Notes under the pieces: model-generated
The model's database searches: none
Told to the model about the DNA's origin: nothing
The model's input: the letters and a program-made list of their open reading frames with translations, nothing else
Shown here: positions 960 to 60,350 of the stretch, piece after piece
Layout: each line of letters begins with the position of its first letter
Position numbering within the stretch: position 1 is the first letter of the stretch
Origin: Clostridiales bacterium
GTDB lineage: Bacteria > Bacillota > Clostridia > TANB77 > SIG350
Assembly: GCA_015056545.1 (NCBI GenBank)
Contig: SVGE01000002.1
Coordinates: 12,120-76,119, forward strand
Reading direction: 5' to 3'
Length of the DNA: 64,000 bases
Made by a program: the position numbers and the translations under genes

Positions 960-1364
960 ATGGAAAACGCAAGTAAAGCTCTTTTAATAGCAGGTGCTAT
1001 ATTATTAGTTATAGCTATTATAGCTATAGGTATGACTATATTAGGTCAAGGACAAGATGTTGTAAATAAAACTGGAGGTCAAATAGGTGCTATGGCAATT
1101 AATGCTCATAATAGTCAATTTGGTGAAATACATAATAATGCAATAGTTAAAGGTACTGAATTAAAAAGAATTGCTTCAGTAGCTTTATCAAATAATCAAC
1201 AATCACAAGCAAATAAAGTATGTGATGTTACTATTACTATTGATGGAGTAGTTTTAGCAGCAAATACATTAGGAAATATAGTTACAAGTAGAGATTATAC
1301 AATAACTTTAGTAACATATACTAATGATGGTGCTATAACATCTTTCACAGCTACAGTAAGATAA
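960..1364 (+). CDS. Pilin-like paralog 1 (N-terminal MENASKALLIAG hydrophobic helix); possible major subunit
   Basis: Strong SD (aaaggggg) lies 8 nt upstream. The N-terminus is MENASKALLIAGAILLVIAIIAIG, with an AHNSQF motif and a C-terminal GAITSFTATV strand. It is the first of seven paralogs and is followed by a stem-loop. Confidence 0.6.
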   Translation: MENASKALLIAGAILLVIAIIAIGMTILGQGQDVVNKTGGQIGAMAINAHNSQFGEIHNNAIVKGTELKRIASVALSNNQQSQANKVCDVTITIDGVVLAANTLGNIVTSRDYTITLVTYTNDGAITSFTATVR

Positions 1365-1373
1365 TTACAAATT

Positions 1374-1413
1374 ACATATATGAGCAGTTATATTTAATAA
1401 CTGCTCTATATGT
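1374..1413 (+). promoter_or_regulatory. Stem-loop after the first pilin-like gene (no U-tract); possible partial terminator, RNA-stability or processing element
   Basis: Imperfect inverted repeat acatatatgagcagtta / taactgctctatatgt. It is followed by a 95-nt AT-rich spacer before the next SD. Confidence 0.35.
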
Positions 1414-1507
1414 AAAAATAAATATATTAATATATTATTTTATATAGTATATTAATATGTTTAGAAGTTTTAAACATAAAAAATTATTTTTTTAGGAGGA
1501 ATAAATT

Positions 1508-1954
1508 ATGGAAAACGCAAGTAAAGCTTTGCTTATCGCAGGAGCGATATTATTAGTAATAGCTATTATAGCTATAGCAGTAGGAATAGTAAGTTCTACA
1601 AGAGGTACAATTGGTGTAGCAGAAAATCAAATTGATGCAATGGAAGTAAAAATGCATAATAATCAATTTACAATATATGAAGGTGAAGTAACAGGTGCTG
1701 AAGTAAAAGATTGTGTTTCAAAAGCATTATCTAATAACACCAATACTAAACAATCAGAGATGAAAGTATGGGTTGTAGTTACTGCTAAAAATAGTGCAGG
1801 GGCAAATGTTACAACAAATTATGGAGTAAATGGTTCTACTACATATAATACAACATTTACATCATCAAGTGTAGAGACTAGTGCTAGATTTAATTGTGTT
1901 ACTTCAATAAATTCACAAGGTATAATAAATAAAATTACTTTTACACAAAAATAG
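1508..1954 (+). CDS. Pilin-like paralog 2
   Basis: SD aggagg. N-terminus MENASKALLIAGAILLVIAIIAIAVGIVSSTRGTIGVAENQIDAM, MHNNQFTIYEG motif, C-terminal GIINKITF. Confidence 0.6.
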   Translation: MENASKALLIAGAILLVIAIIAIAVGIVSSTRGTIGVAENQIDAMEVKMHNNQFTIYEGEVTGAEVKDCVSKALSNNTNTKQSEMKVWVVVTAKNSAGANVTTNYGVNGSTTYNTTFTSSSVETSARFNCVTSINSQGIINKITFTQK

Positions 1955-1964
1955 GTGATAAATT

Positions 1965-2396
1965 ATGGAAAATGCAAGTAAAGCATTATTAATAGCTGGT
2001 GGCGTTTTAGTAACATTAGCTGTAGTTTCAATAATAATGATAATATTTAATAAAGGAAGAGACTTTAATAAAACTCAAGTTGATAGTTTTGATAAAAAAA
2101 AGATTGCTTATCATAATAGCCAGTTTGCTGCTTATGAAAGAGAATTAGAAAAAGCAGAACTTCAAAAATTAATTGATGTAGCTATTAAAAATAACATAAA
2201 TGCAGAAAATAAAGAATATGTAGTTTCTGTTATATATAATGGTGTTAATTATTCTTTTAATCCTACATCTAAAAAATTAATGTATAACGGAAATGATTTA
2301 GAAGATATTAAACATGATAGTTTAGATAAATTTAATTGTTACACCAAAACTAATACTTATGGAATAATTACTGAAATTTATATAAATAAAATTTAG
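1965..2396 (+). CDS. Pilin-like paralog 3
   Basis: SD ggtga. N-terminus MENASKALLIAGGVLVTLAVVSII, YHNSQFAAYE motif, C-terminal GIITEIYI. The gap from the previous gene is 10 nt. Confidence 0.6.
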   Translation: MENASKALLIAGGVLVTLAVVSIIMIIFNKGRDFNKTQVDSFDKKKIAYHNSQFAAYERELEKAELQKLIDVAIKNNINAENKEYVVSVIYNGVNYSFNPTSKKLMYNGNDLEDIKHDSLDKFNCYTKTNTYGIITEIYINKI

Positions 2397-2407
2397 GGGG
2401 AAAACCT

Positions 2408-2902
2408 ATGGAAAATGCAAGTAAAGCATTATTAATTGCTGGAGCAATATTATTAGTAATAGCAATAATAGCAATAGCTGTGGGGATAGTAAGTAGTACC
2501 AGAGGAACTATAGATGTGGCAGGTAATCAAATAGATGGAATGTCAGTACAAATGCATAATAAACAATTTGAAGAGTATGCAGGTATTGGAAAAAGTATTG
2601 ATGAAGCAAAAGAATTAATAAGATTAGTAGCTTCTAATAATAGTAGCACACAAGATTCAAAAAGAAAAATAGAAGTTGAACTTTGGAATCAATTTGCTAC
2701 ACATGATCAAAATAAATTTGAAGGACAATATTGGGATAAATTACGTTCAGAAACAGAAGTAACTACTATATATAACTGGAGATTTTTTACCGAAGGTTCT
2801 GAAACAACTGGTGGAAATATAGGTAGAACATATAATATTAAATTAACATATGATTCATCAGGTTACATAACAAAGATTGATTTTTATAGAAGGTATAAAT
2901 AG
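2408..2902 (+). CDS. Pilin-like paralog 4
   Basis: SD ggggga. N-terminus MENASKALLIAGAILLVIAIIAIAVGIVSSTRGTI, MHNKQFEEYAG motif, C-terminal GYITKIDF. Confidence 0.6.
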   Translation: MENASKALLIAGAILLVIAIIAIAVGIVSSTRGTIDVAGNQIDGMSVQMHNKQFEEYAGIGKSIDEAKELIRLVASNNSSTQDSKRKIEVELWNQFATHDQNKFEGQYWDKLRSETEVTTIYNWRFFTEGSETTGGNIGRTYNIKLTYDSSGYITKIDFYRRYK

Positions 2903-2921
2903 AATTTAGGAGGAATAAACT

Positions 2922-3413
2922 ATGGAGAATGCAAGTAAAGCATTACTTATTGCAGGAGCAATATTACTAGTAATAGCTATAATAGCGATAGGAGTAGGAA
3001 TAGTAAGTAGTACTAGAGGAACGATAGGTGTAGCTGAAAATCAAATATCTTCAATGGAGATACAAATGCATAATGAACAATTTAAAAAGTATGAAGGTAA
3101 AGGAAAAACATATAATCAAGTAAAAGAAATATTAGCAGAAATGACAGCATATAACTCAGGCTTAAAAGATTCTGGTTTAAAAGTACAAGTAAAAACATAT
3201 AGGTATGCTAATGCTACTAATACTACTATTAATTCAAGCCATTCTTGTACTAAAGATCCAGATGCTATATATACAGGAGCAGGTTGTTATTTATTTGGAA
3301 GTAAAGCAACTTATGGAGCAAGTCATACAGAAAATTATTTATATGATATTTTCTGTGAATATGATGCTACAGGTGCTGTTAAATATATAAAATTGGTAAG
3401 ATACTATAACTAA
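2922..3413 (+). CDS. Pilin-like paralog 5
   Basis: SD aggagg. N-terminus MENASKALLIAGAILLVIAIIAIGVGIVSSTRGTI, MHNEQFKKYEG motif, C-terminal GAVKYIKL. Confidence 0.6.
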   Translation: MENASKALLIAGAILLVIAIIAIGVGIVSSTRGTIGVAENQISSMEIQMHNEQFKKYEGKGKTYNQVKEILAEMTAYNSGLKDSGLKVQVKTYRYANATNTTINSSHSCTKDPDAIYTGAGCYLFGSKATYGASHTENYLYDIFCEYDATGAVKYIKLVRYYN

Positions 3414-3426
3414 AGTGGGTGATGAT

Positions 3427-3849
3427 ATGGAAAATGCAAGTAAAGCTGTTATAATAGCAGGAGCAATATTGCTAATGTTAGCTATAATATCAATGGGAGT
3501 TATAATATTTGGAAAAGGAAAAATATTTGTAGATACTATGGATAAGCAATTATCTCAAAGTGATATACAAAACCACAATGCACAATTTACTAGATTTGAG
3601 GGTAATGTTTCAGGTGCAGAAGTAAAAAATGCGTGTAATGCTGTGGCACAAACAAATGAAAAAAATAAAGTTATATCTATGCAAATAATTGTATTAGAAA
3701 AAAATGGTACACAGTTTGCTAAGCATTCTAAGACTAATGATAATTTAAATAAAATTATGAATCAAGTTTCTAATACTCAAATGTTTAAAGGTAGTGTAAC
3801 ATATAACAGTGAAGGAATAATAGATACATTAACATTTAAAAAACAATAA
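3427..3849 (+). CDS. Pilin-like paralog 6
   Basis: The ORF track starts at GTG 3415. ATG 3427 restores the family N-terminus MENASKAVIIAGAILLMLAIISMG, and gtgggtga serves as the SD. It has an NHNAQFTRFEG motif and C-terminal GIIDTLTF. Confidence 0.6.
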   Translation: MENASKAVIIAGAILLMLAIISMGVIIFGKGKIFVDTMDKQLSQSDIQNHNAQFTRFEGNVSGAEVKNACNAVAQTNEKNKVISMQIIVLEKNGTQFAKHSKTNDNLNKIMNQVSNTQMFKGSVTYNSEGIIDTLTFKKQ

Positions 3850-3937
3850 TACATTAATAGAAATATTAATGTATATATGTCCTAGTTTTTAGGATATATA
3901 TATATTAATATATATATAGTTGGAAGGAGATAAATAT

Positions 3938-4402
3938 ATGGAAAATGCAAGTAAAGCATTATTAATAGCTGGTGGAGTTTTAGTTGCTCTTTTAGTAATA
4001 AGTTTAGGTATGTATATAATAGGGCGAGCACAAAATACAGCTGTTTCAGCAGAAGAAAGAAGATTACAAACTTTAACACAAGAACAAATAAATAAATTTT
4101 CACAGTATTCAGGAGAAATATATGGTATGGAAGTTGAAAACTGTATAAGAAGAATAGCTTCATATAATAAAGATAAAGCAAGTTCTGAAAGAATATTAAT
4201 AACATTATCTAAAAATACCGGTGGAACAGGTATAGTAGAATATGATGGTTCAGCAGATGAAATAATTGATCCTGCAATTGCAAATAAAATGAAAAATATT
4301 ATGAGTGAAACAGATAGAAATGATATATATACTGGGACAATAACATATTTAGCTAATGGAATGATAGAAAAAATAGATTTTGTTTTAAAAGAAAAAAAAT
4401 AA
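3938..4402 (+). CDS. Pilin-like paralog 7 (most divergent)
   Basis: The ORF track starts at TTG 3920. ATG 3938 follows SD ggaaggag and restores MENASKALLIAGGVLVALLVISLG. The HNxQF motif is degenerate (INKFSQYSGE) and the C-terminus is GMIEKIDF. Hairpins at about 3850-3900 precede it. Confidence 0.55.
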   Translation: MENASKALLIAGGVLVALLVISLGMYIIGRAQNTAVSAEERRLQTLTQEQINKFSQYSGEIYGMEVENCIRRIASYNKDKASSERILITLSKNTGGTGIVEYDGSADEIIDPAIANKMKNIMSETDRNDIYTGTITYLANGMIEKIDFVLKEKK

Positions 4403-4414
4403 GGAGAATAAAAT

Positions 4415-4882
4415 ATGGAAGATGCTGCAAAAGCAATTGAATTAGCTGTTGGTGTAATTATTTTTATTGTTGCATTAACAATAGGACTTTTATTATATAA
4501 TAAATTAGCAGATACAGCTAATAATGCATTAACTATAAATGATACACAAAATAGTGTTACATATAATAAAAATGATTTACCTAAAGATTTCGGATATATA
4601 TATAATTCAGAAGATATATATTATCTAATAAAAGATATAAAAAGTGATAATGAATTATATAGTGAAGTTAATAGAATTTATGTAGGAGAAGGGAATTATA
4701 CAAATGAAGAAGGTATTTCATATACTCCTAAAACTAAAGTATCAATTAATGAAAATCAGTTTAATGGCAGTAATGAAAAATATAAGCTAAAATATGAATA
4801 TGAGTATATTGAAAAAGATATTTTAACAGAGTTAAATACTCATAAACCAAAAGAAATATATATTATTAAATATGTAGAATAA
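4415..4882 (+). CDS. N-terminally anchored small protein, possible TadE-like minor pilin
   Basis: SD aaggag. The N-terminus MEDAAKAIELAVGVIIFIVALTIGLL has an A-I-E-L-A + hydrophobic pattern resembling the TadE/Flp A-(V/I)-E-(F/Y)-(A/G)-L core. It is in the same operon as the pilin-like genes. Confidence 0.35.
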   Translation: MEDAAKAIELAVGVIIFIVALTIGLLLYNKLADTANNALTINDTQNSVTYNKNDLPKDFGYIYNSEDIYYLIKDIKSDNELYSEVNRIYVGEGNYTNEEGISYTPKTKVSINENQFNGSNEKYKLKYEYEYIEKDILTELNTHKPKEIYIIKYVE

Positions 4883-4901
4883 ATAGAAAAGGAGAGTAAA
4901 T

Positions 4902-5474
4902 ATGGGAGATATTTTAGAGAAAATATTTGCAGTAATTTTGGTAGTAATTTTGATGTTTTTCTTTCCTTTACTTGATTCATTTGAAAGGATGGATGACTTA
5001 TCATATATGACAGTTTATGCAGCAACTGTTAAATTTGTTGATGCAGTTAGAACTACTGGTCATATTACACCAACAATGTATTCAGAATTTATGCAAAAAT
5101 TAAATTCAACAGGAAATAAATATGATGTAGAAATGGTACATAGAAAAAGCATGTATTATCCAGCAAAAGATGTTGGAGGAATTGCTCCAGAACATGGAAA
5201 TGTTCGTTTGGATGAGGAATTTAATACTGAGCAAATATTATTTAGTATGGGATATTATACATATGATAATGCAACAAATACATTAAATGAAACTTCTCCA
5301 ACAAGTGATGAAGGATATACAAATTTTTCTGTAGGAGATTATTTTTATGTATCAGTACAAAACACATCAGCAACACCAGCAACTGTAATAAAAAGAGTTA
5401 TATATGGAAATAATGTAACAGATTTAGTTATTATGGTTCCATATGGAGGAATGGTACAAAATGATGGAAAATAG
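4902..5474 (+). CDS. N-terminally anchored protein of the filament operon (function unknown)
   Basis: SD aaggagag. There is a single N-terminal TM (IFAVILVVILMFFFPLL). The gene is tightly spaced within the operon. Confidence 0.4.
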   Translation: MGDILEKIFAVILVVILMFFFPLLDSFERMDDLSYMTVYAATVKFVDAVRTTGHITPTMYSEFMQKLNSTGNKYDVEMVHRKSMYYPAKDVGGIAPEHGNVRLDEEFNTEQILFSMGYYTYDNATNTLNETSPTSDEGYTNFSVGDYFYVSVQNTSATPATVIKRVIYGNNVTDLVIMVPYGGMVQNDGK

Positions 5475-5487
5475 AAAGAGGTAAAAT

Positions 5488-8400
5488 ATGAAAATAGTAT
5501 CATGGGGGATAATATTTGTAATAGTTATTTTTTCTTTTTCTTTTATTAATAGGGTAATTCTTAATGATAAAATGGAAATAATGAAGGAAGAAGTTAATTA
5601 CAATAATACATTAGAATTAGCTGTAGGGGATGCAACTACTGAATTAAAAGCTCAAATGAATAGTATTATGGGAACATATAATGAAACTCAAGAAATGATG
5701 CTAACTGTAGCAAAAAAGTTTTTTGATAGTTTTTCAATTGGGTTTGGATACTATGGAGGAAATTCAAAAGAGTCCCTAGTAAAAATGTATATTCCAGCAT
5801 TAACAATGATGACTTATGATGGCTTTTATATGTATACATTAGATTATGTAACAGATAATGCAGGGAATCAATATATTGAGCATACATTAAAACCAGAAGT
5901 AAAATATGTATATAATGATAGTGAAAGTAAAATAAATTTTACTTTAGATAATAGTATAATATTAAATGAAAATGTGCAAATCATAGATTATTCTAATCCT
6001 GTTATGGAACCAGTTTATGCAAAAGATGAAGCTGGAAATGATGTGTTTGATGCAGATGGAAATAAAGTAATTATAGGATATGAGCAAAAGAAAGACCCAT
6101 CTACTGGAAATTTAATTTATTATTTAAAGGATACTAATACAGGTAGGGTTGTTGATTTAAATCATTATTATGATATAGAGATTAGAAGTGATTCTTCATG
6201 GCAACAGGAAATTGGAGGAAAAACATTTACTTTTAGAAAAGAAGGAAATTTATGTTATACTTCAAATGAAGCATATGAAGCAGATGTAAATAAAGTAATA
6301 GTATATGAAAAATCATTTTATAATCTAAATGGAATAAGATATTTACTTGAAGAATGGAGAATAAAAGCAACAGATGAATTAATAGAACAAAGAATGACAG
6401 AATATACAGAAGAACAATTAGTTTTTTCACAATCAATTGAAGCTAATATAAGTAATAAATATGGTGAAACAAATGAAATTACTAGTGGTGGATATTTAGT
6501 TTGGGAAACAGATAAACTAAATCCATCAAAAGAATATATAACATATCTTACAAGAGGAAATTCTGAAAATGAAGGTTTTGTAAATCCTTTAACAGGAGAA
6601 TATGAAATAGGTGAATTCCATAAAGTAAGAAGAGAAGTAATAACAAAACAAATTAAAGATAATTTAGAATATTATATATTATTACATAATAAATTTGCAG
6701 AAAATAATGGAATTACATATACATTTACTGTACCTGAGGTAAAAGATACAGATTGGGAAAATGCTATTACAGATATGTCTGTATTTGCATTTGTACAAGG
6801 TATACCAATGGTAAGTGGGGAATATTATAATAATTATGGTATAGCAGGAGCTAAGGTAATAAATAAAGAATTATTTTATGGATTGCCACCTGAAACTGCG
6901 CAAATAGAGCCAGGAAAGGTACCAACATATTATTCAAGCAGACATATTGGTTCAGCAAAAACATATTTATTTGAAAGAAATAATGCACGTGTTTTTGATA
7001 ATCCAAAAGATGCAGCAGATTATGGATATTATCCTAATATAGATGGAAATATAGAGCAGGTAGAAGAATTAGAAAGAGATGTATGGGATATAGATATAAT
7101 AAAAGAAGGATTTAATTGTATAAAAGCAGGTGATGTAATATCTATACCAATAATTTTATCAGATGATATAATTCCATCTGAAATAAAATGGGTGCAAGGA
7201 GAAGAGTCAAGATATTATTTCTCAAGTGCAGGAAATGCTAAAAATATTGGTACAAAACGTGTACAATATGATGCAGGAAAAGTATTAGATACTGCAGTAG
7301 ATATTACTGTACAAGATGGAACTAATATTTCATGGCAATATGCACAACGAGAAGGAAAAAGAGTAGTATTTATTGTGTTAAATGCAGGATATGCACCAAC
7401 TTCTGTTGGAACTACATCATATACAATATTTATTAGAGATATGGAAGGTAATAGTAAAGTTGCAACTATATCATTAAATATAGTAAATAACAATGATATG
7501 ATAATATCTCAAACATCAAGTAAAACAGATAATGATACAGATCCTAATAATACTATTACAGGAACTTTTAGTTATAGAAATTGGAGTAATTTATTAAAAG
7601 AAGATACTCCTAATAATAAAGATTTAGATTTAACAAATGATACATATATGGCATATTGGGCAAAAGGAAAACTAAATGGTTTAACAATTGAGTCATATTA
7701 TGAAACATTACTTCAAGGAAATTCTGTATCAGGGGTAAATGAACTTAACCAAACAGGAACAAATTCATGGTCATTTAATGTAAATGAATATGGATACTAT
7801 ACAGTATTTGTTTGGGACTGTACTGGAGAACCTTGGGTAGGGGAAATAATTATTCTTCCTGAATTAAAAGTTACATATAGAATAGATGCATATGGACCAG
7901 ATATTGCTACAGGAAATAATATGTTAATAGAGACAATTGAGTATGATGAACTAGGTAATATAATATCTGGATCAACAGAAATAGAGCAGCAAATAGATTA
8001 TGGAAAGGTATATATAGAAATTAATAGAACATTAGAGCAATTGAAGTATGTAGAATATAAAAAAGGTAATTTTGATGTAACTGCTAATGCAAGTGCTGGT
8101 ATAGAGGCATATGTACCTAATACAGGAACTAATATTAAAGGAATAAACACATTTGATTTAACAGAAAACAACTATTACACTGTATATGTCGAAGATGTTA
8201 TATCTGCAAAAGAATGTGTACAAATTAACTTTGAGTTAATAACAAGTGCATTTATACCAAACTTTAATAATTGGATTATACCAGATTTAGAATATCAGAA
8301 AAAAGAAAAATCTGTAACTAATACATGGTATTGTGATGTAAATATGGATGACCCAAGTTGTATACTAGGAACACATTATGATATTGTTAATCATAGTAAA

Positions 8401-9039
8401 GGAACAATAAAGTCTCGTGAGACTGGCAGCAGATTTGAACCTATTATAAGAACTCAAAATACATTAACTTTTGGAGGGTATGAAAGTGAAAGCTATTCAG
8501 ACATTATTTTTACAAATGCAGATCCAAAATATGAAATAGTATTTAGATATACAATAAATGATGCTGATGTATCTTATCATAGTTCTAAAGGAGCAGGTTT
8601 CTTATTTGATTGTAATGTAACTACTACAACTAGAAGTGATGGATATAAAAATTATACTTTAAATTCAGCTTATTTACTATTATATGAAAAATCTAGCATA
8701 AATCTATATCGAGTTAATAGTAGTAGTAATTTAACAGGAGTAAGGAATAGTTCGCTTAGTTTAGTCTCAACAGGTAATAGTAGTACAAAGCTTTCAGGAG
8801 GAATACATGAAACTAGATTAGAAATTAGACAAATAAATGATACACAGCAAAAATTAGTATTAAAAGAAAAAAATTCATCTGGAAATTGGCAAGAACTTAT
8901 TAATACGACAATTTCTCATAATAAGCAAACTGAAAATGCATATGGAGTAATAATGAAACATTCTAGTCATGCGTGTGAATATGTATCAGCATTTAAATTT
9001 AATAATATGAGTATAATACAAAAAGATTATGCAAATTAA
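5488..9039 (+). CDS. Large (1183 aa) N-terminally anchored, Asn/Thr/Tyr-rich multidomain protein; putative filament-associated adhesin
   Basis: SD agagg. There is an N-terminal TM (IVSWGIIFVIVIFSFSFI). A beta-sandwich-type module ending recurs three times (TSYTIFIRDMEGN, GYYTVFVWDCTGE, NYYTVYVEDVISA). The C-terminal 220 aa or so look like a jelly-roll/lectin fold, but this is inference only. It is the last gene before the hairpin at 9047. Confidence 0.45.
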   Translation: MKIVSWGIIFVIVIFSFSFINRVILNDKMEIMKEEVNYNNTLELAVGDATTELKAQMNSIMGTYNETQEMMLTVAKKFFDSFSIGFGYYGGNSKESLVKMYIPALTMMTYDGFYMYTLDYVTDNAGNQYIEHTLKPEVKYVYNDSESKINFTLDNSIILNENVQIIDYSNPVMEPVYAKDEAGNDVFDADGNKVIIGYEQKKDPSTGNLIYYLKDTNTGRVVDLNHYYDIEIRSDSSWQQEIGGKTFTFRKEGNLCYTSNEAYEADVNKVIVYEKSFYNLNGIRYLLEEWRIKATDELIEQRMTEYTEEQLVFSQSIEANISNKYGETNEITSGGYLVWETDKLNPSKEYITYLTRGNSENEGFVNPLTGEYEIGEFHKVRREVITKQIKDNLEYYILLHNKFAENNGITYTFTVPEVKDTDWENAITDMSVFAFVQGIPMVSGEYYNNYGIAGAKVINKELFYGLPPETAQIEPGKVPTYYSSRHIGSAKTYLFERNNARVFDNPKDAADYGYYPNIDGNIEQVEELERDVWDIDIIKEGFNCIKAGDVISIPIILSDDIIPSEIKWVQGEESRYYFSSAGNAKNIGTKRVQYDAGKVLDTAVDITVQDGTNISWQYAQREGKRVVFIVLNAGYAPTSVGTTSYTIFIRDMEGNSKVATISLNIVNNNDMIISQTSSKTDNDTDPNNTITGTFSYRNWSNLLKEDTPNNKDLDLTNDTYMAYWAKGKLNGLTIESYYETLLQGNSVSGVNELNQTGTNSWSFNVNEYGYYTVFVWDCTGEPWVGEIIILPELKVTYRIDAYGPDIATGNNMLIETIEYDELGNIISGSTEIEQQIDYGKVYIEINRTLEQLKYVEYKKGNFDVTANASAGIEAYVPNTGTNIKGINTFDLTENNYYTVYVEDVISAKECVQINFELITSAFIPNFNNWIIPDLEYQKKEKSVTNTWYCDVNMDDPSCILGTHYDIVNHSKGTIKSRETGSRFEPIIRTQNTLTFGGYESESYSDIIFTNADPKYEIVFRYTINDADVSYHSSKGAGFLFDCNVTTTTRSDGYKNYTLNSAYLLLYEKSSINLYRVNSSSNLTGVRNSSLSLVSTGNSSTKLSGGIHETRLEIRQINDTQQKLVLKEKNSSGNWQELINTTISHNKQTENAYGVIMKHSSHACEYVSAFKFNNMSIIQKDYAN

Positions 9040-22236: not shown

Positions 22237-22265
22237 TTGAAAAGTTAAAAAACATATGTTATATT
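22237..22265 (+). promoter_or_regulatory. P1 promoter of leader copy 1 (TTGAAA-17-TATATT)
   Basis: ttgaaa at 22237-22242 and tatatt at 22260-22265. The position is conserved in all three copies. Confidence 0.65.
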
Positions 22266-22290
22266 ACAAACAGAAAAGAGGTGTAAGAAA

Positions 22291-22356
22291 ATGTCAAATA
22301 AACCTAAGCCAAACTGCCAGAAAGTGCTAAATACTAGGGGGGGGGGATGTTTATAG
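22291..22356 (+). CDS. Leader sORF, 21 codons (MSNKPKPNCQKVLNTRGGGCL), containing the poly-G tract
   Basis: SD aaagaggtg lies 7 nt upstream of the ATG. SD, ATG and the MSNK...C.KVLNTRGG core are conserved in all three copies. Translation has not been demonstrated. Confidence 0.35.
   Translation: MSNKPKPNCQKVLNTRGGGCL
22337..22346 (+). repeat. Homopolymeric G10 tract
   Basis: Counted directly: 4 G at 22337-22340 plus 6 G at 22341-22346. The homologous tracts are G11 and G8. Confidence 0.95.
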
Positions 22357-22393
22357 TATAAAAACATCTTTAATTGACATGCAAAAAAATACA

Positions 22394-22445
22394 AAGAACT
22401 TAAGAATATATTACGAGAAAACGTAGTATAGTCTTAGGTTCTTTT
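22394..22445 (+). terminator. Long imperfect hairpin plus T-run inside the leader (intrinsic terminator/attenuator)
   Basis: aagaacttaagaatatattacg / cgtagtatagtcttaggttctt forms a 22-bp stem with 3 mismatch/wobble positions and an agaaaa loop, followed by tttt. Confidence 0.6.
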
Positions 22446-22542
22446 AATTTGCCAAAATTAAAAAACAAATAATTTGGCAATAATAAAATAAAGAACTGAG
22501 GAAGGGAGGAAAAAATAAAATAAAAAAACATCAACAAAACAG

Positions 22543-22582
22543 TTGAAGTTAAACTGAAAGTGTTATACAATAAAATTGTATA
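22543..22582 (+). promoter_or_regulatory. P2 promoter (TTGAAG-17-TACAAT) overlapped by the palindrome tatacaat-aaa-attgtata
   Basis: ttgaag at 22543-22548 and tacaat at 22566-22571. The 8-bp inverted repeat at 22564-22582 covers the -10 box. Confidence 0.55.
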
Positions 22583-22612
22583 AGAAAATTAAATTTAAAG
22601 GAGGAAAAAATC

Positions 22613-23764
22613 ATGAAAAATTTAAGTAAAAGAGCTGGAATCAGCTTAGTTGCATTAATTGTAACAATAATTGTGCTAATAATATTAACTGCTGCAGTTA
22701 TAGTTACGTTTATGGAAGGTGGAATAATAGACAGAGCAAAGGAAAGTGTATTTAAAAGTGATATAAGAACATATCAAGAAATATTAGCAGTAAAAAGAGC
22801 AGAAGAACAAATAAAGTTAGCAACAGGAAATGGCGAAGAAGAATTAAAATTAATAGACAAAACAATAACAGGGGAAGAAATAAAAGATATATTACCAGAA
22901 TTTAAAGTAGAAGAATATGGAGAATTAATAGAAGTAGCAAATGGAGAAATAGTAGCAAAAAAAGAATTAGATGAAGAAGTTATGCAAGAAAAATGGTTAA
23001 TAGAATTAGGAATAGGACTAGGAAGTAAAATTGGTAATATAGGAATTGTTCATAATGATATTATTCCAGAAGGTGGAACTTATTATAAAGGGATTAAATC
23101 TGTAGATGGCCCAGAAGGAACACCTGTTTATATGGTAGGAGATTATTCAACTGCAGAAGAGGTATTTAGTGAAGGAGATAATTTCCCAAATTTAGAAACA
23201 GGAGATGTTTATGTATATGGGGATTATGAATATAGATATAATTCTGAACTTACATCTATGTATTATATTTGGAATGGAGATATTTTTAAAAATGGTTGGG
23301 GAGTTGCTGTTAGAGAGCAAAACAAATCCGAGTATGGAGATATTTTAACTACTATTAATGGTAGTAATATTATAAGTATGAGAGCTACATTTTGTGGGTT
23401 TGGTAATTTGGAAAATGCACCATCAATTCCAAATACAGTAGCAATATTAGGAGAAACTTTTTTATCTACATCTATAACACAAGCTCCAATAATTCCAGGA
23501 AGTGTTACAGATATGGGATTTACTTTTTCTTCAAGCAGTATTGTTAATGCTCCTACTATACCGTCTAACGTTATTTATTTAGACCATATATTTGAAGGTT
23601 GTGCATCATTAACAGGTACAATCGAAATTAATTCTAATACATCAAATTATTCGGGTGCATTTATTGATACTGTTCAACCTATTACTCTAACAGGTTCTTC
23701 TACAAAACTAGCAGAAATAGCAGCAACAGCAAACAATGGAAATGTAACTGTGGCAACTAAATAA
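22613..23764 (+). CDS. Prepilin-like N-terminus (Gly(-1) kept, Ile(+1), Ala(+5)) fused to a BspA-type leucine-rich-repeat surface domain
   Basis: SD aaggagg. MKNLSKRAG/ISLVALIVTIIVLIILTAAVIV resembles the type IV prepilin (K/R)G/F(T/S)L(I/V)E core. The C-terminal repeats are of the IPxxV...F..C..L type (NAPSIPNTVAILGETF, APIIPGSVTDMGFTF, NAPTIPSNVIYLDHIFEGCASL). Confidence 0.6.
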   Translation: MKNLSKRAGISLVALIVTIIVLIILTAAVIVTFMEGGIIDRAKESVFKSDIRTYQEILAVKRAEEQIKLATGNGEEELKLIDKTITGEEIKDILPEFKVEEYGELIEVANGEIVAKKELDEEVMQEKWLIELGIGLGSKIGNIGIVHNDIIPEGGTYYKGIKSVDGPEGTPVYMVGDYSTAEEVFSEGDNFPNLETGDVYVYGDYEYRYNSELTSMYYIWNGDIFKNGWGVAVREQNKSEYGDILTTINGSNIISMRATFCGFGNLENAPSIPNTVAILGETFLSTSITQAPIIPGSVTDMGFTFSSSSIVNAPTIPSNVIYLDHIFEGCASLTGTIEINSNTSNYSGAFIDTVQPITLTGSSTKLAEIAATANNGNVTVATK

Positions 23765-25704: not shown

Positions 25705-25726
25705 ATTATTGTATGAAAATTAAATA

Positions 25727-25832
25727 AAAATGCTGAATCTTTGTAAAAAGAGCCGAGGAACCAATTTTGGGGTGTATCATATAAATGAGGGAAACCTTTT
25801 ATTCCTAACCCGTCAGCTAACTTGGCAAGCTA
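25727..25832 (+). promoter_or_regulatory. ydaO/kimA-class c-di-AMP riboswitch aptamer
   Basis: Blocks match the recalled consensus in order: tgctgaatc, gagccgaggaaccaa, ttggggtgtatc, gagggaaacc, aacccgtcagctaacttggcaagc. Compare B. subtilis ...GAGCGGGGGACCCA...UUGGGGUGAAUC...ACCCGUCAGCUAACCUCGUAAGCG. Confidence 0.75.
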
Positions 25833-25853
25833 TATAAGAGGAAAATAACTAAG

Positions 25854-25910: not shown

Positions 25911-26972
25911 ATGAAAAATAGTAAAATTAGTGTAATTGTACCAATATATAATGTGGAAAATTATTTGAATAATTGTATAGATAGTATAATTAATCAAACA
26001 TACTCAAATTTAGAAATAATATTAGTAGATGATGAATCAACAGATAATTCAGGAAAAATTGCAGACGAATATATTAAAAAAGATAATAGAATTAAAGTTA
26101 TTCATAAGAAAAATGGAGGATTATCTGATACGAGAAATGCAGGAATAGAAATTGCTACAGGGGATTATTTAATGTTTATCGACTCAGATGATTTTTTCCC
26201 TATAAATGCATGTGAAGTTTTAGTAAATAAAATTGAAGAAAAGCAAGCTGATTATGTAATCGGAAATTATATTAATACCCAGGAGAATGGAAAGCTATGG
26301 GAAAAGCCTATTTTTAATACAGAGAAATATAAAGAGTTTGAATTAAGTATAAAAGATTATAAAGATTCTTTTTATATAATGAATTCTAGTGCTTGTAATA
26401 AAATATTTAAAGCAAGTTTTATAAAAGAATTGAATTTAAAATTTGAAGTAGGTTTGCCGGCAGAAGATGCTATATTTACTACATATTGTTTTATTAAAGC
26501 AAATAAAGTTGTATATATTCCAGAAATAATTTATTGTTATAGACAAAGAAATGCAGGGACATCCATTTCTATGAATTGTACAGAAAAGTATTTTAATGGA
26601 ATCAATAATGCATATAAAATAATTTATAATAATTTTAAAGAAAATGATGAAATAGGTTTTTACAGATTTTTTTATGCAAAAAGTATGACATATATGTTGT
26701 ATAAATTCATAGATTCAAAATTTATAAATGATGAACAAAAAATAGATATTTTATCACAAATGAGATGGTTTTATAAATTAAGCAAAGAACTTAATGTTCC
26801 GGCGTGTCAAGAGTCATTAAGTTTAATTATAGATAAAATAATTAATGGAGATTATAAAGATGTTATAGATATTTGCAAAGTTATTGCAGAAGTAAGAACA
26901 TTTATGCCACAAGATATTAAAGAAACTATGTCTAAGCCACAGGCAGATATGTATTTAAAAATGATGGAATAA
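25911..26972 (+). CDS. Family-2 glycosyltransferase (cell-envelope polysaccharide/teichoic-acid type)
   Basis: ISVIVPIYNVENYLNNCIDSIINQTYSNLEIILVDDESTDNSG...DSDD is the canonical GT2 N-terminal domain. Confidence 0.8.
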   Translation: MKNSKISVIVPIYNVENYLNNCIDSIINQTYSNLEIILVDDESTDNSGKIADEYIKKDNRIKVIHKKNGGLSDTRNAGIEIATGDYLMFIDSDDFFPINACEVLVNKIEEKQADYVIGNYINTQENGKLWEKPIFNTEKYKEFELSIKDYKDSFYIMNSSACNKIFKASFIKELNLKFEVGLPAEDAIFTTYCFIKANKVVYIPEIIYCYRQRNAGTSISMNCTEKYFNGINNAYKIIYNNFKENDEIGFYRFFYAKSMTYMLYKFIDSKFINDEQKIDILSQMRWFYKLSKELNVPACQESLSLIIDKIINGDYKDVIDICKVIAEVRTFMPQDIKETMSKPQADMYLKMME

Positions 26973-30838: not shown

Positions 30839-30912
<74 letters not shown>

Positions 30913-42377: not shown

Positions 42378-42481
42378 AATAATTATGGCATCTAAGAGAT
42401 AGATGTCATATTTTTTTATAAAACTACTTGAAATGATGAAATACATATGGTATATTACAAACAGAAAAGGGGTGAATAAAA

Positions 42482-42553
42482 ATGTCAAATAAAACCAACC
42501 TAAACTGCCATAAAGTGCTAAATACTAGGGGGGGGGGGATGTTTATAAAATAA
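42482..42553 (+). CDS. Leader sORF copy 2, 23 codons (MSNKTNLNCHKVLNTRGGGMFIK)
   Basis: SD aaaggggtg. The position is homologous to 22291. Confidence 0.35.
   Translation: MSNKTNLNCHKVLNTRGGGMFIK
42528..42538 (+). repeat. Homopolymeric G11 tract
   Basis: Counted directly: 3 G at 42528-42530 plus 8 G at 42531-42538. Confidence 0.95.
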
Positions 42554-42584
42554 GAACATCTTTATTTGACATGCAAAAAAGTAG

Positions 42585-42637
42585 AGAACTTAAGAATATA
42601 TTACGAAAAAAACGTAGTATAGTCTTAGGTTCTTTTT
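42585..42637 (+). terminator. Leader hairpin/terminator copy 2
   Basis: agaacttaagaatatattacg / cgtagtatagtcttaggttct followed by ttttt. Confidence 0.6.
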
Positions 42638-42712
42638 AGTGCGCGCAAAAAAGGACTTAGGCATCCATTAGCCTATAATGGAAAAATTAAATTTTAAAGG
42701 AGGAAAAAGATT

Positions 42713-43963
42713 ATGGAAAAAACAAGTAAAAGAGCTGGAATCAGCTTAGTAGCACTAATTGTAACAATAATTGTACTAATAATATTAACAGCTGCAGTTA
42801 TAGTTACATTTATGGAAGGGGGCATAATAGAGAAAGCAAAAGAAGCGGTATTTAAAAGTGATATAAGAACATATCAAGAAATACTAGCAGTAAAGAATGC
42901 AGAAAAACAAATAGAACTAGCAACAGGAAATGGAGAAGGAGTACAATTAAATGCAACAGAGTTAGCAGAAATACAAGAAATAATACCAGAATTTAAAGAA
43001 GAGTATAAAGATTTAATAGCAATAAGTAATGGAGAAATAGTATTAGGTTCATTAGAAAAAGAGCCATATAGTGGATGGTTAGCAGATTTAGGAATAGAAT
43101 TATCTTCAGAAGCTAAAAAATCTATAACAACAAATTTAAAAGTAGGAGACTATGTAGATTATAATATAGCAGGTGGAACATATAGAATAACTGAAGAAGA
43201 AAGAAGCTGGGTATTTAATGACTTAGATAAAGGTTCTCATGAAAGCAGAACAATAGATTTTGACGAAGGTGAAGATATAATAGAATATCAAGATATAAAT
43301 TGGAGAGTATTAAAAAATGATGGTTCAGTGGTAACATTAATAACTGCAGACCCAGTATATAATATATGTTTGTATGGTAAAAAAGGTTTTTTTGAAGGCT
43401 TAAATAAACTAGATGAGATATGTCAAATAGTATATGGAGGAAGAAACCTAAAAATAGAGGATGTAAATGAAGTATTAAAAGTAAATGTAGGAGAAGATGT
43501 TAATCCATCTTATATGGAGGCGATAGATTATACTCGAATAGAAATGGAAGCTGGGGCAACATTTGGAGATGCAATTGATCATTACGGTTACGATGTAAGC
43601 CAATATCCAGAGTCAGTTAATAATTATAGAGACTATGAATTATCATATTCTTATAATAAGTCAATAGTAACAAAAGCTACTGAAATTGAAAAAGAAATTG
43701 TATTTATAGATAACGAATACTGGTTGTCTTCAGCGTGTATTGATGTATGTTTCCATGATGATGCCTATTTTTGTTTACGTTCTGTAAATGCTAATTATGT
43801 AATGGGACAGTATTGGTTGTATAGACCAAGTAGTCTTGAAAATTTACAAGAATTTGCTCTAGTATTTGGTCTTCGTCCAGTAGTAACTCTTAGTTCTAGT
43901 ACACAAATAGCAGATGTAACTGGAGATGGTTCTAGTGCAAGTTCACCATGGCAATTAAAATAA
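42713..43963 (+). CDS. Prepilin-like N-terminus (G/ISLVA) fused to a C-terminal surface domain of about 300 aa (W-R-V-L motif family)
   Basis: SD aaggagg. The N-terminal 60 aa are nearly identical to 22613 and 59058. It shares EPYSGWLADLGI, DINWRVLKNDGSVVTLI, EDVNE, EYWLSS and the tail GDGSSASSPWQLK with 59058. Confidence 0.6.
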   Translation: MEKTSKRAGISLVALIVTIIVLIILTAAVIVTFMEGGIIEKAKEAVFKSDIRTYQEILAVKNAEKQIELATGNGEGVQLNATELAEIQEIIPEFKEEYKDLIAISNGEIVLGSLEKEPYSGWLADLGIELSSEAKKSITTNLKVGDYVDYNIAGGTYRITEEERSWVFNDLDKGSHESRTIDFDEGEDIIEYQDINWRVLKNDGSVVTLITADPVYNICLYGKKGFFEGLNKLDEICQIVYGGRNLKIEDVNEVLKVNVGEDVNPSYMEAIDYTRIEMEAGATFGDAIDHYGYDVSQYPESVNNYRDYELSYSYNKSIVTKATEIEKEIVFIDNEYWLSSACIDVCFHDDAYFCLRSVNANYVMGQYWLYRPSSLENLQEFALVFGLRPVVTLSSSTQIADVTGDGSSASSPWQLK

Positions 43964-58617: not shown

Positions 58618-58728
58618 AGAGTAAAGAGTTTAGAGTATCTAATTAGATATTTTAAACTCTTTTTAATTAAACTATTGCAAAGTTAAAATACATATGGTAA
58701 TATTAAAAACAGAAAAGAGGTGTAGAAA

Positions 58729-58797
58729 ATGTCAAATAAAACCAGCGTAAAGTGCCAGAAAGTGCTAAATACTAGGGGGGGGATGTTTATAGCATAA
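58729..58797 (+). CDS. Leader sORF copy 3, 22 codons (MSNKTSVKCQKVLNTRGGMFIA)
   Basis: SD aaagaggtg. The position is homologous to 22291. Confidence 0.35.
   Translation: MSNKTSVKCQKVLNTRGGMFIA
58775..58782 (+). repeat. Homopolymeric G8 tract
   Basis: Counted directly: 6 G at 58775-58780 plus 2 G at 58781-58782. Confidence 0.95.
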
Positions 58798-58828: not shown

Positions 58829-58880
58829 AAAGAACTTAAGAATATATTACGAAAAAACGTAATGTAGTCTTAGGTTCTTT
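58829..58880 (+). terminator. Leader hairpin/terminator copy 3
   Basis: aaagaacttaagaatatattacg / cgtaatgtagtcttaggttcttt followed by a T-run. Confidence 0.6.
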
Positions 58881-58983
58881 TAATTTGCCAAAATTAAAAA
58901 AATATATTTTGGAAATAATAAAATAAAGAGCCGAGGGAAGGAGGTAATAACAAAAGAAAAATAAAAAAACTACAACAAAACAG

Positions 58984-59021
58984 TTGAAGTAAAACTAAAA
59001 GTGTTGTACAATGGTATTGTA
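58984..59021 (+). promoter_or_regulatory. P2 promoter copy 3 (TTGAAG-17-TACAAT) with the overlapping inverted repeat tacaat-ggt-attgta
   Basis: ttgaag at 58984-58989 and tacaat at 59007-59012. The inverted-repeat partner is at 59016-59021. Confidence 0.55.
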
Positions 59022-59057
59022 TAAAAACAAATTTAAAATACGAAGGGAGAAAAGATT

Positions 59058-60350
59058 ATGAAAAAATCAAGTAAAAGAGATGGAATCAGCTTAGTAGCAC
59101 TAATTGTAACAATAATTGTACTAATAATATTAACTGCTGCAGTTATAGTTACATTTATGGAAGGTGGAATAATAGAAAAGGCGAAAGAAGCGGTATTTAA
59201 AAGTGATATAAGAACATATCAAGAAATATTAGCGGTAAAAAATGCAGAGAATATGATTAATTTAGCAACCGGAAATGGAGAAGATACTCCGCTTAATGCG
59301 ACAGAATTAGAAGATATACAAGAAATGATACCAGAATTTAAAGAAGAATATGATGGGTTAATAGTAATAAGTAATGGAGAGATAGTATTAGGAACAGAAA
59401 GTAAAGAGCCATATAGTGGATGGTTAGCAGATTTAGGGATAGGAGTAGCACCATTACCAGAAAATGCGATAGCAAATAAAGTAGAAGTAGGAGACTATGT
59501 GGCATATACTCCAGGAGAAGAAGAAAGAAGTTACGAATTATTAGGAACAGATAGTGGTTATTTTACACCAGAAGATTCATACGAGGGATCGGATCCATCC
59601 TATTATCCAAATAGCTTGTTAGACCAAACAATAGAAAGAAAGCATGATATAAATTGGAGAGTATTAAAAATAGATGGTAATAAAGTAACATTAATAAGTG
59701 AAACACCAATAGATGATATAGGTTTTGGAGGAAACTTAGCATATTTAAATGGTCCACAACAATTAGATAATATATACTCAAGTTTATATAGTAAAACAGG
59801 TGTAGGTACAGCAAGAAATATAGATGTAGAAGATGTAAATGAAATAATGGGAGTAGTAATAGGTGAAGATGTAAAATCTGTATACCAAGATGGAGATGGT
59901 ACTGAAACAGAAGTTGATGTAGGCACTAAACTAGGAGAAGTATATGATGCATATGGCTGGCTTGATATGACTAGCTTTTGCAATGTTGAAGATTTGGAAT
60001 ATGATAATACTTTTGGATATTATTATGGTGATTATGAAATTTCATATTATACATATAATGGAAGTACATATGAAGAAGGTAAAGAAACAGAATATGATTT
60101 ATTGTTTAATGGAGAATATTGGCTTGCTTCACAAACAGCTTATTTAATGCTTTGTGGTGATTCACCATTTTATATGCGTAAGATTAAAGGAGATGTAATT
60201 TCAGCTGAATATTTTTGGAATACATGTAATACTTGGAGAAGCTTAAGCCTTCCAGGTCGTCCTATAGTTGAATTAAATGCTAATGTAGAAATATCTGAAA
60301 GTAATACAGGAGATGGAACTAGTGCAGCTTCAGCATGGCAATTAAAATAA
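59058..60350 (+). CDS. Prepilin-like N-terminus (G/ISLVA) fused to a C-terminal surface domain (paralog of 42713)
   Basis: SD gaaggga. MKKSSKRDG/ISLVALIVTIIVLIILTAAVIV. It carries EPYSGWLADLGI, DINWRVLKIDGNKVTLI, EDVNE, EYWLAS and the tail GDGTSAASAWQLK. Confidence 0.6.
   Translation: MKKSSKRDGISLVALIVTIIVLIILTAAVIVTFMEGGIIEKAKEAVFKSDIRTYQEILAVKNAENMINLATGNGEDTPLNATELEDIQEMIPEFKEEYDGLIVISNGEIVLGTESKEPYSGWLADLGIGVAPLPENAIANKVEVGDYVAYTPGEEERSYELLGTDSGYFTPEDSYEGSDPSYYPNSLLDQTIERKHDINWRVLKIDGNKVTLISETPIDDIGFGGNLAYLNGPQQLDNIYSSLYSKTGVGTARNIDVEDVNEIMGVVIGEDVKSVYQDGDGTETEVDVGTKLGEVYDAYGWLDMTSFCNVEDLEYDNTFGYYYGDYEISYYTYNGSTYEEGKETEYDLLFNGEYWLASQTAYLMLCGDSPFYMRKIKGDVISAEYFWNTCNTWRSLSLPGRPIVELNANVEISESNTGDGTSAASAWQLK

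Follow-up and report, generated by a model that had tools for sequence, protein, structure and literature searches.

A poly-G tract in a small leader ORF as a probable slipped-strand switch upstream of pilin-like genes in a Clostridiales bacterium

Three poly-G leaders and the genes that follow them

The stretch of DNA analysed here (the window, 64 kb in full), from an uncultured gut-type Clostridiales bacterium, is composed of 40% A, 33% T, 15.9% G and 10.4% C (26% G+C). It carries a leader of ~170 nt in three copies, which share roughly 88% identity. One gene lies 3' of each leader and encodes a pilin-like protein of about 380-430 aa. All features described below are on the forward (+) strand. 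The order of elements in the leader is conserved: a sigma-70 promoter, a Shine-Dalgarno sequence and ATG, a small ORF, a short hairpin and a 22-bp intrinsic terminator. In copy 1, a consensus scan (10/12 matches) predicted the promoter at 22237-22265, with TTGAAA, a 17 nt spacer, TATATT and a TG extended -10. Sequence comparison found a promoter of this type conserved in all leaders, including those predicted in copy 2 (42428-42456, TTGAAA ... TGGTATATT) and copy 3 (58675-58704, TTGCAA ... TGGTAATATT). The copy 1 Shine-Dalgarno sequence, AGAGGTG, was read from the sequence at 22277-22283, 7 nt before the leader ATG at 22291. This arrangement of AGAGGTG, 7 nt and then ATG is conserved in 8 leaders and would begin a putative translatable ORF in which the tract occupies codons 16-19.

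A run-length census located the poly-G tracts at 22337-22346 in copy 1 (G10), 42528-42538 in copy 2 (G11) and 58775-58782 in copy 3 (G8), exactly where the initial annotation had placed them. That annotation had also described the flanks as identical and the tracts as compositionally extraordinary, and both descriptions hold: AAAGTGCTAAATACTA[G]nATGTTTATA is the same in 3/3 copies, and the census returned no other run of G or of C above 5 nt anywhere in the 64-kb window, for which the base composition predicts ~0.02 G runs of at least 8 nt. The three lengths lie within the range of an SSR (an uninterrupted homopolymer of about 7-8 nt or more). The three window copies are paralogues and therefore do not represent three independent events. 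Judged across leaders, what is beyond chance is the retention of an uninterrupted G run at at least 10 distinct leaders, every one of which keeps it while other leader positions differ by ~12%. Across the other leaders examined (n = 10) the tract spans G7-G12, and leader codons 5-8, only 25 nt from the tract, are hypervariable while the G run is never broken.

With G10, the copy 1 leader ORF (22291-22356) encodes 21 aa, MSNKPKPNCQKVLNTRGGGCL, and ends at a TAG in the loop of hairpin 1, 36 nt before the 5' arm of the terminator. The copy 2 ORF with G11 (42482-42553) encodes 23 aa ending in RGGGMFIK, and the copy 3 ORF with G8 (58729-58797) encodes 22 aa ending in RGGMFIA; both end at TAA, 29 nt and 31 nt before the terminator, respectively. 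These translations, and the RGGGCL terminus of the G10 peptide, agree with those first reported for the small ORFs. For reasons set out below, all three window copies are predicted to be OFF.

Folding placed hairpin 1 of copy 1 (GATGTTT/AAACATC) at 22346-22368, with the stops of both short frames in its loop. The segment that follows, UUUAAUUGACAU (22369-22380), is the 3' arm of a long-range helix, P1, which pairs with the start-codon region AUGUCAAAUAAA (22291-22302) in MFE and centroid folds of 3/3 copies; once formed, P1 would sequester the leader start codon. Across 8 leaders, P1 and hairpin 1 are 95-99% paired with little variation. P1 has 98.6% of cells paired, with almost no variation and no covariation found, and hairpin 1 has one compensatory pair, in L020. 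The whole leader folds far better than shuffled sequence (z-scores -4.5 to -6.7). A scan of the window against Rfam (Rfam 15) at the gathering score returned no family for the leader, and at E = 10 the leader gave chance-level matches only (E 0.2 or higher).

The intrinsic terminator separates the leader ORF from the structural gene. It was predicted by folding at 22393-22445 in copy 1 (dG -23.8 kcal/mol, with a T run at the end), 42583-42637 in copy 2 (-23.3 kcal/mol) and 58829-58881 in copy 3 (-23.8 kcal/mol), giving a 22-bp stem of about -23.5 kcal/mol followed by a T run. In copy 1, the 5' arm (22393-22415), loop (22416-22421) and 3' arm (22422-22443) precede the T run, and the 5' arm begins 46 nt after the tract, in line with the distance of about 50 nt noted earlier. 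The stem is 100% paired in 8 distinct leaders, with 7 one-sided changes and 1 compensatory pair.

In long-type leaders (copies 1 and 3), the terminator is separated from the gene by ~170 nt that include two more hairpins. A weak sigma-70-like match is found in this region at 22543-22571, 3' of the copy 1 terminator, and likewise in copy 3. Because this sequence precedes the gene in copies 1 and 3, some switch-independent expression is possible. We considered a second promoter at 22543-22571 as a conserved bypass of the switch and rejected it. Conservation of the hexamers is lost in L003 and L020, whose -10 region instead makes up one half of a hairpin that covaries, and the region is missing from short-type leaders (copy 2, L017 and L021).

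The putative regulated genes lie at 22613-23764 (copy 1, 383 aa), 42713-43963 (copy 2, 416 aa, P0085) and 59058-60350 (copy 3, 430 aa, P0101). The N-terminal ~135 aa of their products are highly conserved and begin with a segment ending in KRxG, followed by ISLVALIVTIIVLIILTAAV, which is a pilin-like leader and then a hydrophobic helix; the C-terminal domains differ among family members. In the copy 1 protein, the conserved module of ~135 aa is joined to an LRR-like C-terminus, and a Pfam search gave no match. An AlphaFold2 model of the copy 2 protein (pLDDT 82) has a helix at residues 12-70, then globular domains, and Foldseek found no PDB fold match for this model. Taken together, Pfam, PDB sequence profile and Foldseek searches for the identity of the downstream proteins gave only the pilin-like N-terminal helix. 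Type IV pilins are marked by a short basic leader that ends in Gly and a hydrophobic helix of ~20 aa (N_methyl motif, Glu at +5), in company with a prepilin peptidase. Both KRAG followed by ISLVALIVTIIVLIIL and the helix at 12-70 fit type IV pilins; the window proteins have Ala, not Glu, at +5 and gave no Pfam match. The distant homologue P0037 has GFTLIE and PF07963.

A gene for a prepilin peptidase (Peptidase_A24, PF01478; 41658-42377) lies directly 5' of the copy 2 leader, the call being transferred from L001 and L011, whose copy of the gene is identical and annotated as PF01478. This adjacency suggests that the family proteins are prepilin-type substrates. A database search added at least 19 paralogues, all from a single NCBI MAG labelled 'Clostridiales bacterium' (locus tags beginning E7311_). 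Many relatives have BspA-type LRR (PF13306) or DUF285 domains, and some have a prepilin N_methyl motif. On these grounds, the targets of the leaders would form a large lineage-specific family (>20) of pilin-like surface proteins with variable heads. Genes of this type are of the kind usually controlled by contingency loci.

Tract length in other assemblies and the third reading frame

Orthologous loci were retrieved from other metagenome assemblies by exact-protein look-ups. Five loci matched their counterparts over 2.6-5.2 kb with 0-2 mismatches, and tract length, read in every case from metagenome consensus assemblies that may contain miscalled homopolymers or chimeric joins at the repeated leader, differed at 4/5. 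At the copy 1 locus, L010 has G9 (2 mismatches), and the window and L028, which is 100% identical to it, have G10. The copy 2 locus has G9 in L011, G10 in L001 and L002 and G11 in the window. With 0 mismatches throughout, the only departure from the window is one 1-nt gap each in L001 (4251 bp) and L002 (2939 bp) and a 2-nt gap in L011 (5156 bp). Four lengths were found at the P0011 locus, G10 (L004) and G11 (L003) as well as G9 (P0142) and G12 (P0144), the last two from called peptides only, and three at the P0031 locus, G9 (L032), G11 (L033 and L034) and G12 (L031), with 0-1 mismatches in 2.6 kb. At the copy 3 locus, the window, L025 and L026 all have G8, and both L025 and L026 are 100% identical to the window.

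By this comparison of otherwise isogenic backgrounds, no other position changes nearly as fast as the length of the tract. Single length calls may be in error because they come from consensus assemblies, because contigs often break at the repeated leader and because some joins look chimeric (L029 and L016). The G9 alleles of two other loci (P0123 and P0135) are identical across 10-15 contigs, and this reproducibility argues against random homopolymer error. We consider it very probable, from the alignments as a whole, that the tract is genuinely hypervariable. The initial annotation had proposed a phase-variation switch, driven by slipped-strand mispairing and acting through the leader ORF and terminator. 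The comparative data lend support to this proposal, since at 4/5 orthologous loci tract length is the only or nearly only difference over kilobases.

That proposal had also rested on two reading frames, G10 compared with G11 and G8, as these are the frames present in the window. Tract length does shift the frame of the ORF, as had been argued, and it had been expected to shift the position at which ribosomes stop relative to hairpin 1. Both window frames stop in the loop of that hairpin, 29-36 nt before the terminator, and are therefore probably one functional state (OFF). The third frame, produced by G9 or G12, would be the deciding state and does not occur in the window. In this frame the ORF is open for 43-52 codons through the terminator and spans hairpin 1, the P1 3' arm and the entire terminator 5' arm. 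The long frame stops at a TAG at 22424-22426 in copy 1 and a TAA at 58860-58862 in copy 3, both at the start of the terminator 3' arm, and at a TAG at 42637-42639 in copy 2, at the end of the T run.

The pattern of one long and two short frames was found in 8/8 distinct leaders, counted among related and not fully independent sequences: exactly one length class stops in or after the terminator, and the remaining two end 41-49 nt short of the core of the terminator arm. Divergent leaders with a changed tract flank, namely L020 (G9 then TG) and L021 (G7 then TG), keep the pattern. Indels in the spacer (-2 or +1 nt) shift the frame in which the long ORF crosses the terminator, so that the peptide ends in KNLRIYYEKT in some leaders and in RELKNILRKKRSIVLGSF in others, and the frame is still open. 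The conserved trait is therefore the potential for translation through the terminator and not the peptide sequence. In random sequence of this composition, the chance of one open frame of ~26 codons among three is ~0.2 (simulation), so the argument from the long frame rests on its conservation and context.

A search with long-frame peptides returned 15 clusters comprising 24 distinct proteins of 43-76 aa that had been called in public assemblies. These include the exact copy 1 and copy 2 leaders with G9 (P0122 and P0126), as well as alleles with G12 (P0121 and P0144).

We also looked for the leader beyond these loci. A scan of GTDB representative genomes with a 20-mer from the terminator gave 0 matches, which places the organism outside that collection, and a tract-agnostic flank pattern gave only 5 chance matches in the metagenome collection, all in unrelated coding sequence. 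A protein-based scan of genome contigs with the N-terminal module retrieved two distant relatives only (31-36% identity). L024, the sole distant relative with upstream sequence, has no G tract or similar leader, and the leader therefore appears to be lineage-specific.

Proposed readout of tract length and its alternatives

We propose that the poly-G tract is a slipped-strand contingency repeat within the leader ORF that gates the terminator via the ribosome, a reading that we hold to be probable. The leader ORF is preceded by a promoter that looks constitutive and followed by a strong intrinsic terminator, 5' of one pilin-like gene, and tract length would set its reading frame. Lengths such as G8, G10 and G11 make up two of the three classes, and with these a translating ribosome would stop in the hairpin-1 loop, 29-36 nt before the terminator; the terminator would then form and transcription would end (OFF). 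For the third class (G9 and G12), the ORF would run for 43-52 codons and stop either within the terminator (loop or 3' arm) or where the T run ends. A ribosome moving behind RNA polymerase would occupy the 5' arm, no hairpin would form, and read-through to the gene would follow (ON). Most likely, then, tract length switches the pilin-like surface-protein gene on or off, and we favour ribosome-mediated antitermination, with fair confidence, as the route by which it would do so. This route calls for translation of the putative ORF and for close coupling of ribosome and polymerase. Transcription-translation coupling is weak in some Firmicutes, such as B. subtilis.

Several other readings were weighed against this one. 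It is improbable that tract length acts on RNA or DNA independently of translation, through folding or spacing, a G-quadruplex, protein binding, or slippage or pausing, and so grades termination. The leader is strongly structured, as its z-scores show, the P1 helix encloses the tract, and homopolymers can cause RNA polymerase slippage. However, varying the tract from G7 to G13 left the predicted fold unaltered and moved dG by 2.5 kcal/mol at most, and on this ground we rejected RNA structure as the readout; length is therefore most plausibly read by the ribosome. The leader also contains no C-rich partner for the G run and has no Rfam match, and a conserved Shine-Dalgarno sequence, ATG and three-frame stop geometry would not be needed without translation. 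We judge it unlikely, too, that there is no switch at all, with a neutral tract inherited along with a recently amplified leader repeat and length differences arising as Illumina or assembler artefacts. The data all come from consensus metagenome assemblies whose contigs frequently break at the leader, and features shared by paralogous leaders that are ~88% identical could simply be inherited. Yet the G9 and G8 alleles recur without change in 3 to 15 independent contigs, length is the sole change in up to 5.2 kb, and an unbroken run of 7-12 G persists at every distinct leader in a 26% GC genome, close to hypervariable codons 5-8.

A role for the long-frame product itself, in which a phase-variable tract would switch a small protein of 44-52 aa with its own function and the pilin-like gene would be transcribed from elsewhere, is quite unlikely. 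Long-frame ORFs of 43-52 aa with a good Shine-Dalgarno sequence are called as genes in many assemblies, and the weak sigma-70-like site 3' of the terminator in copies 1 and 3 could serve such transcription. Against this, the C-terminal half is read in two frames across leaders and so shows no conserved amino-acid sequence, its stop codon falls within the terminator stem or at the T run, and the long-frame peptide search found no homologues outside these leaders; the downstream promoter-like hexamers, for their part, are neither conserved in L003 and L020 nor present in copy 2, L017 and L021. Least probable, and in our estimate very much so, is an attenuator that senses a metabolite or tRNA, either glycine through stalling at GGG or a ligand of a riboswitch with a P1/hairpin-1 aptamer. 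The succession of P1, an internal hairpin and the terminator resembles a riboswitch expression platform, the tract amounts to 2-3 GGG codons, which are rare codons for glycine, and the window includes two genes for tRNA-Gly(UCC). However, MFE and centroid folds offer neither terminator arm an alternative antiterminator partner, stalling on the tract would leave the ribosome ~46 nt short of the terminator, where it could have no influence on it, and the downstream genes encode surface proteins and not glycine metabolism. The lack of an Rfam match even at E = 10 and of covariation in P1 likewise speaks against an aptamer.

Relation to known switches and implications

The closest counterpart of the proposed ribosome-gated switch is found at the pil1 and pil3 loci of S. 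gallolyticus, where the frame of a leader ORF shifts with the number of GCAGA repeats that it contains (Danne et al. 2014, PLoS Pathog, PMC3894217). Expression there is low with short peptides, which end 28-39 nt upstream of the terminator, and high with long ones, which end within or after the hairpin. Mutants showed that the effect requires the start codon, that inserted stop codons block it and that deleting the terminator fixes expression in the ON state (PMC3894217). Both systems consist of a promoter, an SSR-bearing leader ORF and an intrinsic terminator followed by pilus or surface-protein genes, both hosts are Firmicutes, and each has more than one locus per genome. The stop geometry is also alike, with short frames stopping 28-39 nt upstream there and 29-36 nt upstream here, and long frames stopping within or after the hairpin. 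As far as can be read from sequence, the leader has every defining feature of a pil1-type leader-peptide attenuator.

The two systems differ in several respects. The repeat is a mononucleotide G run (7-12) here and about 13-23 GCAGA units in S. gallolyticus, and one of three frames is long here, whereas both out-of-frame classes are long there. The genes behind the leaders are single type-IV-pilin-like genes here and sortase-pilus operons there, at least 10 loci are confirmed and >20 are likely here compared with 2 in S. gallolyticus, and hairpin 1 and the start-codon-sequestering P1 helix are extra elements of the leaders described here. The mechanism was proven by mutants in S. gallolyticus and is predicted here from sequence. 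Because the repeat is mononucleotide G and no GCAGA array was found in the three window leaders, we regard the poly-G leader as an analogue of the pil1 leader and not a homologue. A search of the full-text literature found no precedent beyond S. gallolyticus pil1/pil3.

Contingency loci with poly-G or poly-C tracts are found in Campylobacter jejuni, Neisseria (pilC), Helicobacter pylori and Haemophilus. They share with the present leaders G/C tracts of 8-13 nt in AT-rich genomes, slipped-strand mispairing, an association with surface structures and many loci per genome. In those loci the tract lies in the structural gene, where it causes frameshift and truncation, or in the promoter spacer, whereas here the structural gene and promoter are untouched and a separate leader ORF would be read out via the terminator. 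The opa genes of Neisseria offer a similar family-wide arrangement, in which ~11 surface adhesins each have their own 5' repeat and switch ON and OFF independently and stochastically, producing a combinatorial repertoire. The opa repeat is CTCTT in the signal peptide of the gene itself, and its effect is purely translational, without a leader ORF or terminator.

Other systems resemble the proposed mechanism at the level of the terminator. In Clostridioides difficile, phase variation of the surface protein CwpV depends on an intrinsic terminator in the 5' leader of cwpV that is either allowed to form or prevented from forming. The change there is a site-specific DNA inversion by RecV with no leader peptide, in contrast to a change in repeat length here. 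In trp and pyrBI attenuation, as in our proposal, a downstream intrinsic terminator forms or fails to form according to where the leading ribosome stands on a leader ORF. Those systems sense charged tRNA or UTP by stalling and use an antiterminator hairpin, whereas here the frame would set ribosome position genetically and no antiterminator hairpin is predicted. No upstream partner for either terminator arm, of the kind that stalling at regulatory codons favours in trp-type leaders, appears in the MFE or centroid folds; the Gly codons of the poly-G leader lie ~46 nt before the terminator.

Family genes are present on about 22-25 contigs, and long-frame alleles were recovered on 15 (P0135), 13 (P0136), 10 (P0123) and 8 (P0139) contigs, with 1-3 for the others; these contig counts, from samples that are possibly not independent, hint at a pattern in which few loci are ON. 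Each of the >20 members appears to own a tract, and a population would therefore display a stochastic and reversible subset of variants. We consider the chances about even that every member of this >20-gene family has its own poly-G leader attenuator, arisen independently of the Streptococcus case, and that the result is combinatorial, reversible display with few loci ON at once. Differing joins of leader and gene occur in L012, L013, L014, L016 and L029, of which L016 and L029 look chimeric, and recombination at the leader that the family shares may also exchange switches among genes.

Because the structural genes are intact in every state, screens for tracts in ORFs or promoters would miss this family. 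The proposed mechanism predicts that expression follows a 3-nt periodicity in tract length, and public metagenomes already hold G8-G12 alleles. A family-wide set of such attenuators, if true, would be the first homopolymer-based and the first genome-wide use of SSR-in-leader-ORF attenuation. An independent, non-homologous version of the S. gallolyticus switch would make the repeat switch acting through a leader peptide and terminator a recurrent solution and not a curiosity.

Variable codons and a predicted helix in the leader ORF

Codons 5-8 of the leader ORF form a hypervariable patch (22303-22314, 42494-42505 and 58741-58752 in the window) that differs among the three copies (CCTAAGCCAAAC, ACCAACCTAAAC, ACCAGCGTAAAG), while the remainder of the leaders is approximately 90% identical. 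The codons directly 3' of this patch, encoding C-(Q/H)-KVLNTR, are invariant among leaders.

We also identified a predicted long-range helix, P1, with arms at 22291-22302 and 22369-22380 in copy 1 and at the corresponding positions of the other two copies, in which the leader start codon is paired with the sequence directly 3' of hairpin 1. According to this fold, P1 would mask the start codon after approximately 90 nt of transcript have been made. One possible consequence is that only the first, co-transcriptional ribosome can translate the leader; alternatively, P1 may serve as a pause signal. Because there is almost no covariation in P1, either role is speculative.

Two classes of terminator-to-gene spacer

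The region between the terminator and the pilin-like gene falls into two classes. The long type (22446-22612 and 58882-59057; about 155-176 nt) contains two conserved hairpins, TTGCCAAAATT...AATTTGGCAA and GTTATACAAT...ATTGTATAAC, the second of which has a compensatory change in the metagenome contig L020. Copy 2 (42638-42712) and contigs L017 and L021 have the short type (about 60-75 nt), which carries a AAAAAGAACUUAGG-like segment complementary to the 3' arm of the terminator and its U run. In structure prediction with the terminator 5' arm masked, this segment folds into an alternative hairpin.

Leader-gene joins and contig ends

In other metagenome assemblies, the same region with an AAA_14/DUF4143 gene precedes differing combinations of leader and family gene, the latter encoding pilin-like proteins (L029, 800-1200; L016, 2400-2718; L012, L013 and L014, 2500-4100). 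Depending on the assembly, one and the same leader sequence precedes three different family genes, with products of 283, 414 and 399 aa. These joins either arose by recombination between leaders, which would add a second level of variation, or are assembly chimaeras. The L029 leader starts with TTG, not ATG.

Metagenome contigs repeatedly end in or beside a leader (L002, 1-5; the 3' ends of L010, L015 and L016; the start of L027), and the first base of L002 lies 4 nt 5' of the G tract. Such ends fit an assembly-breaking repeat made up of the leader and the conserved 5' end of the gene, or a loss of coverage at the G run.

Other features of the window

Two tRNA-Gly(UCC) genes are on the forward strand (16468-16541 and 30839-30912). 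This tRNA reads the rare codons GGG and GGA, and the poly-G tract contains GGG codons. A c-di-AMP riboswitch (RF00379, 90.9 bits; 25721-25845, forward strand) precedes an ORF at 25911-26972.

Eight tandem paralogous genes (960-4402) encode products of about 135-165 aa, all starting with MENASKALLIAGAILLVIAIIAI, a pilin/Flp-like hydrophobic N-terminus. They are followed by genes for two further small proteins and an 1183-aa protein (4415-9039). No protein of this cluster, from the paralogues to the 1183-aa protein, had a match in Pfam. The cluster is a possible second pilus or fibre locus of a different kind.
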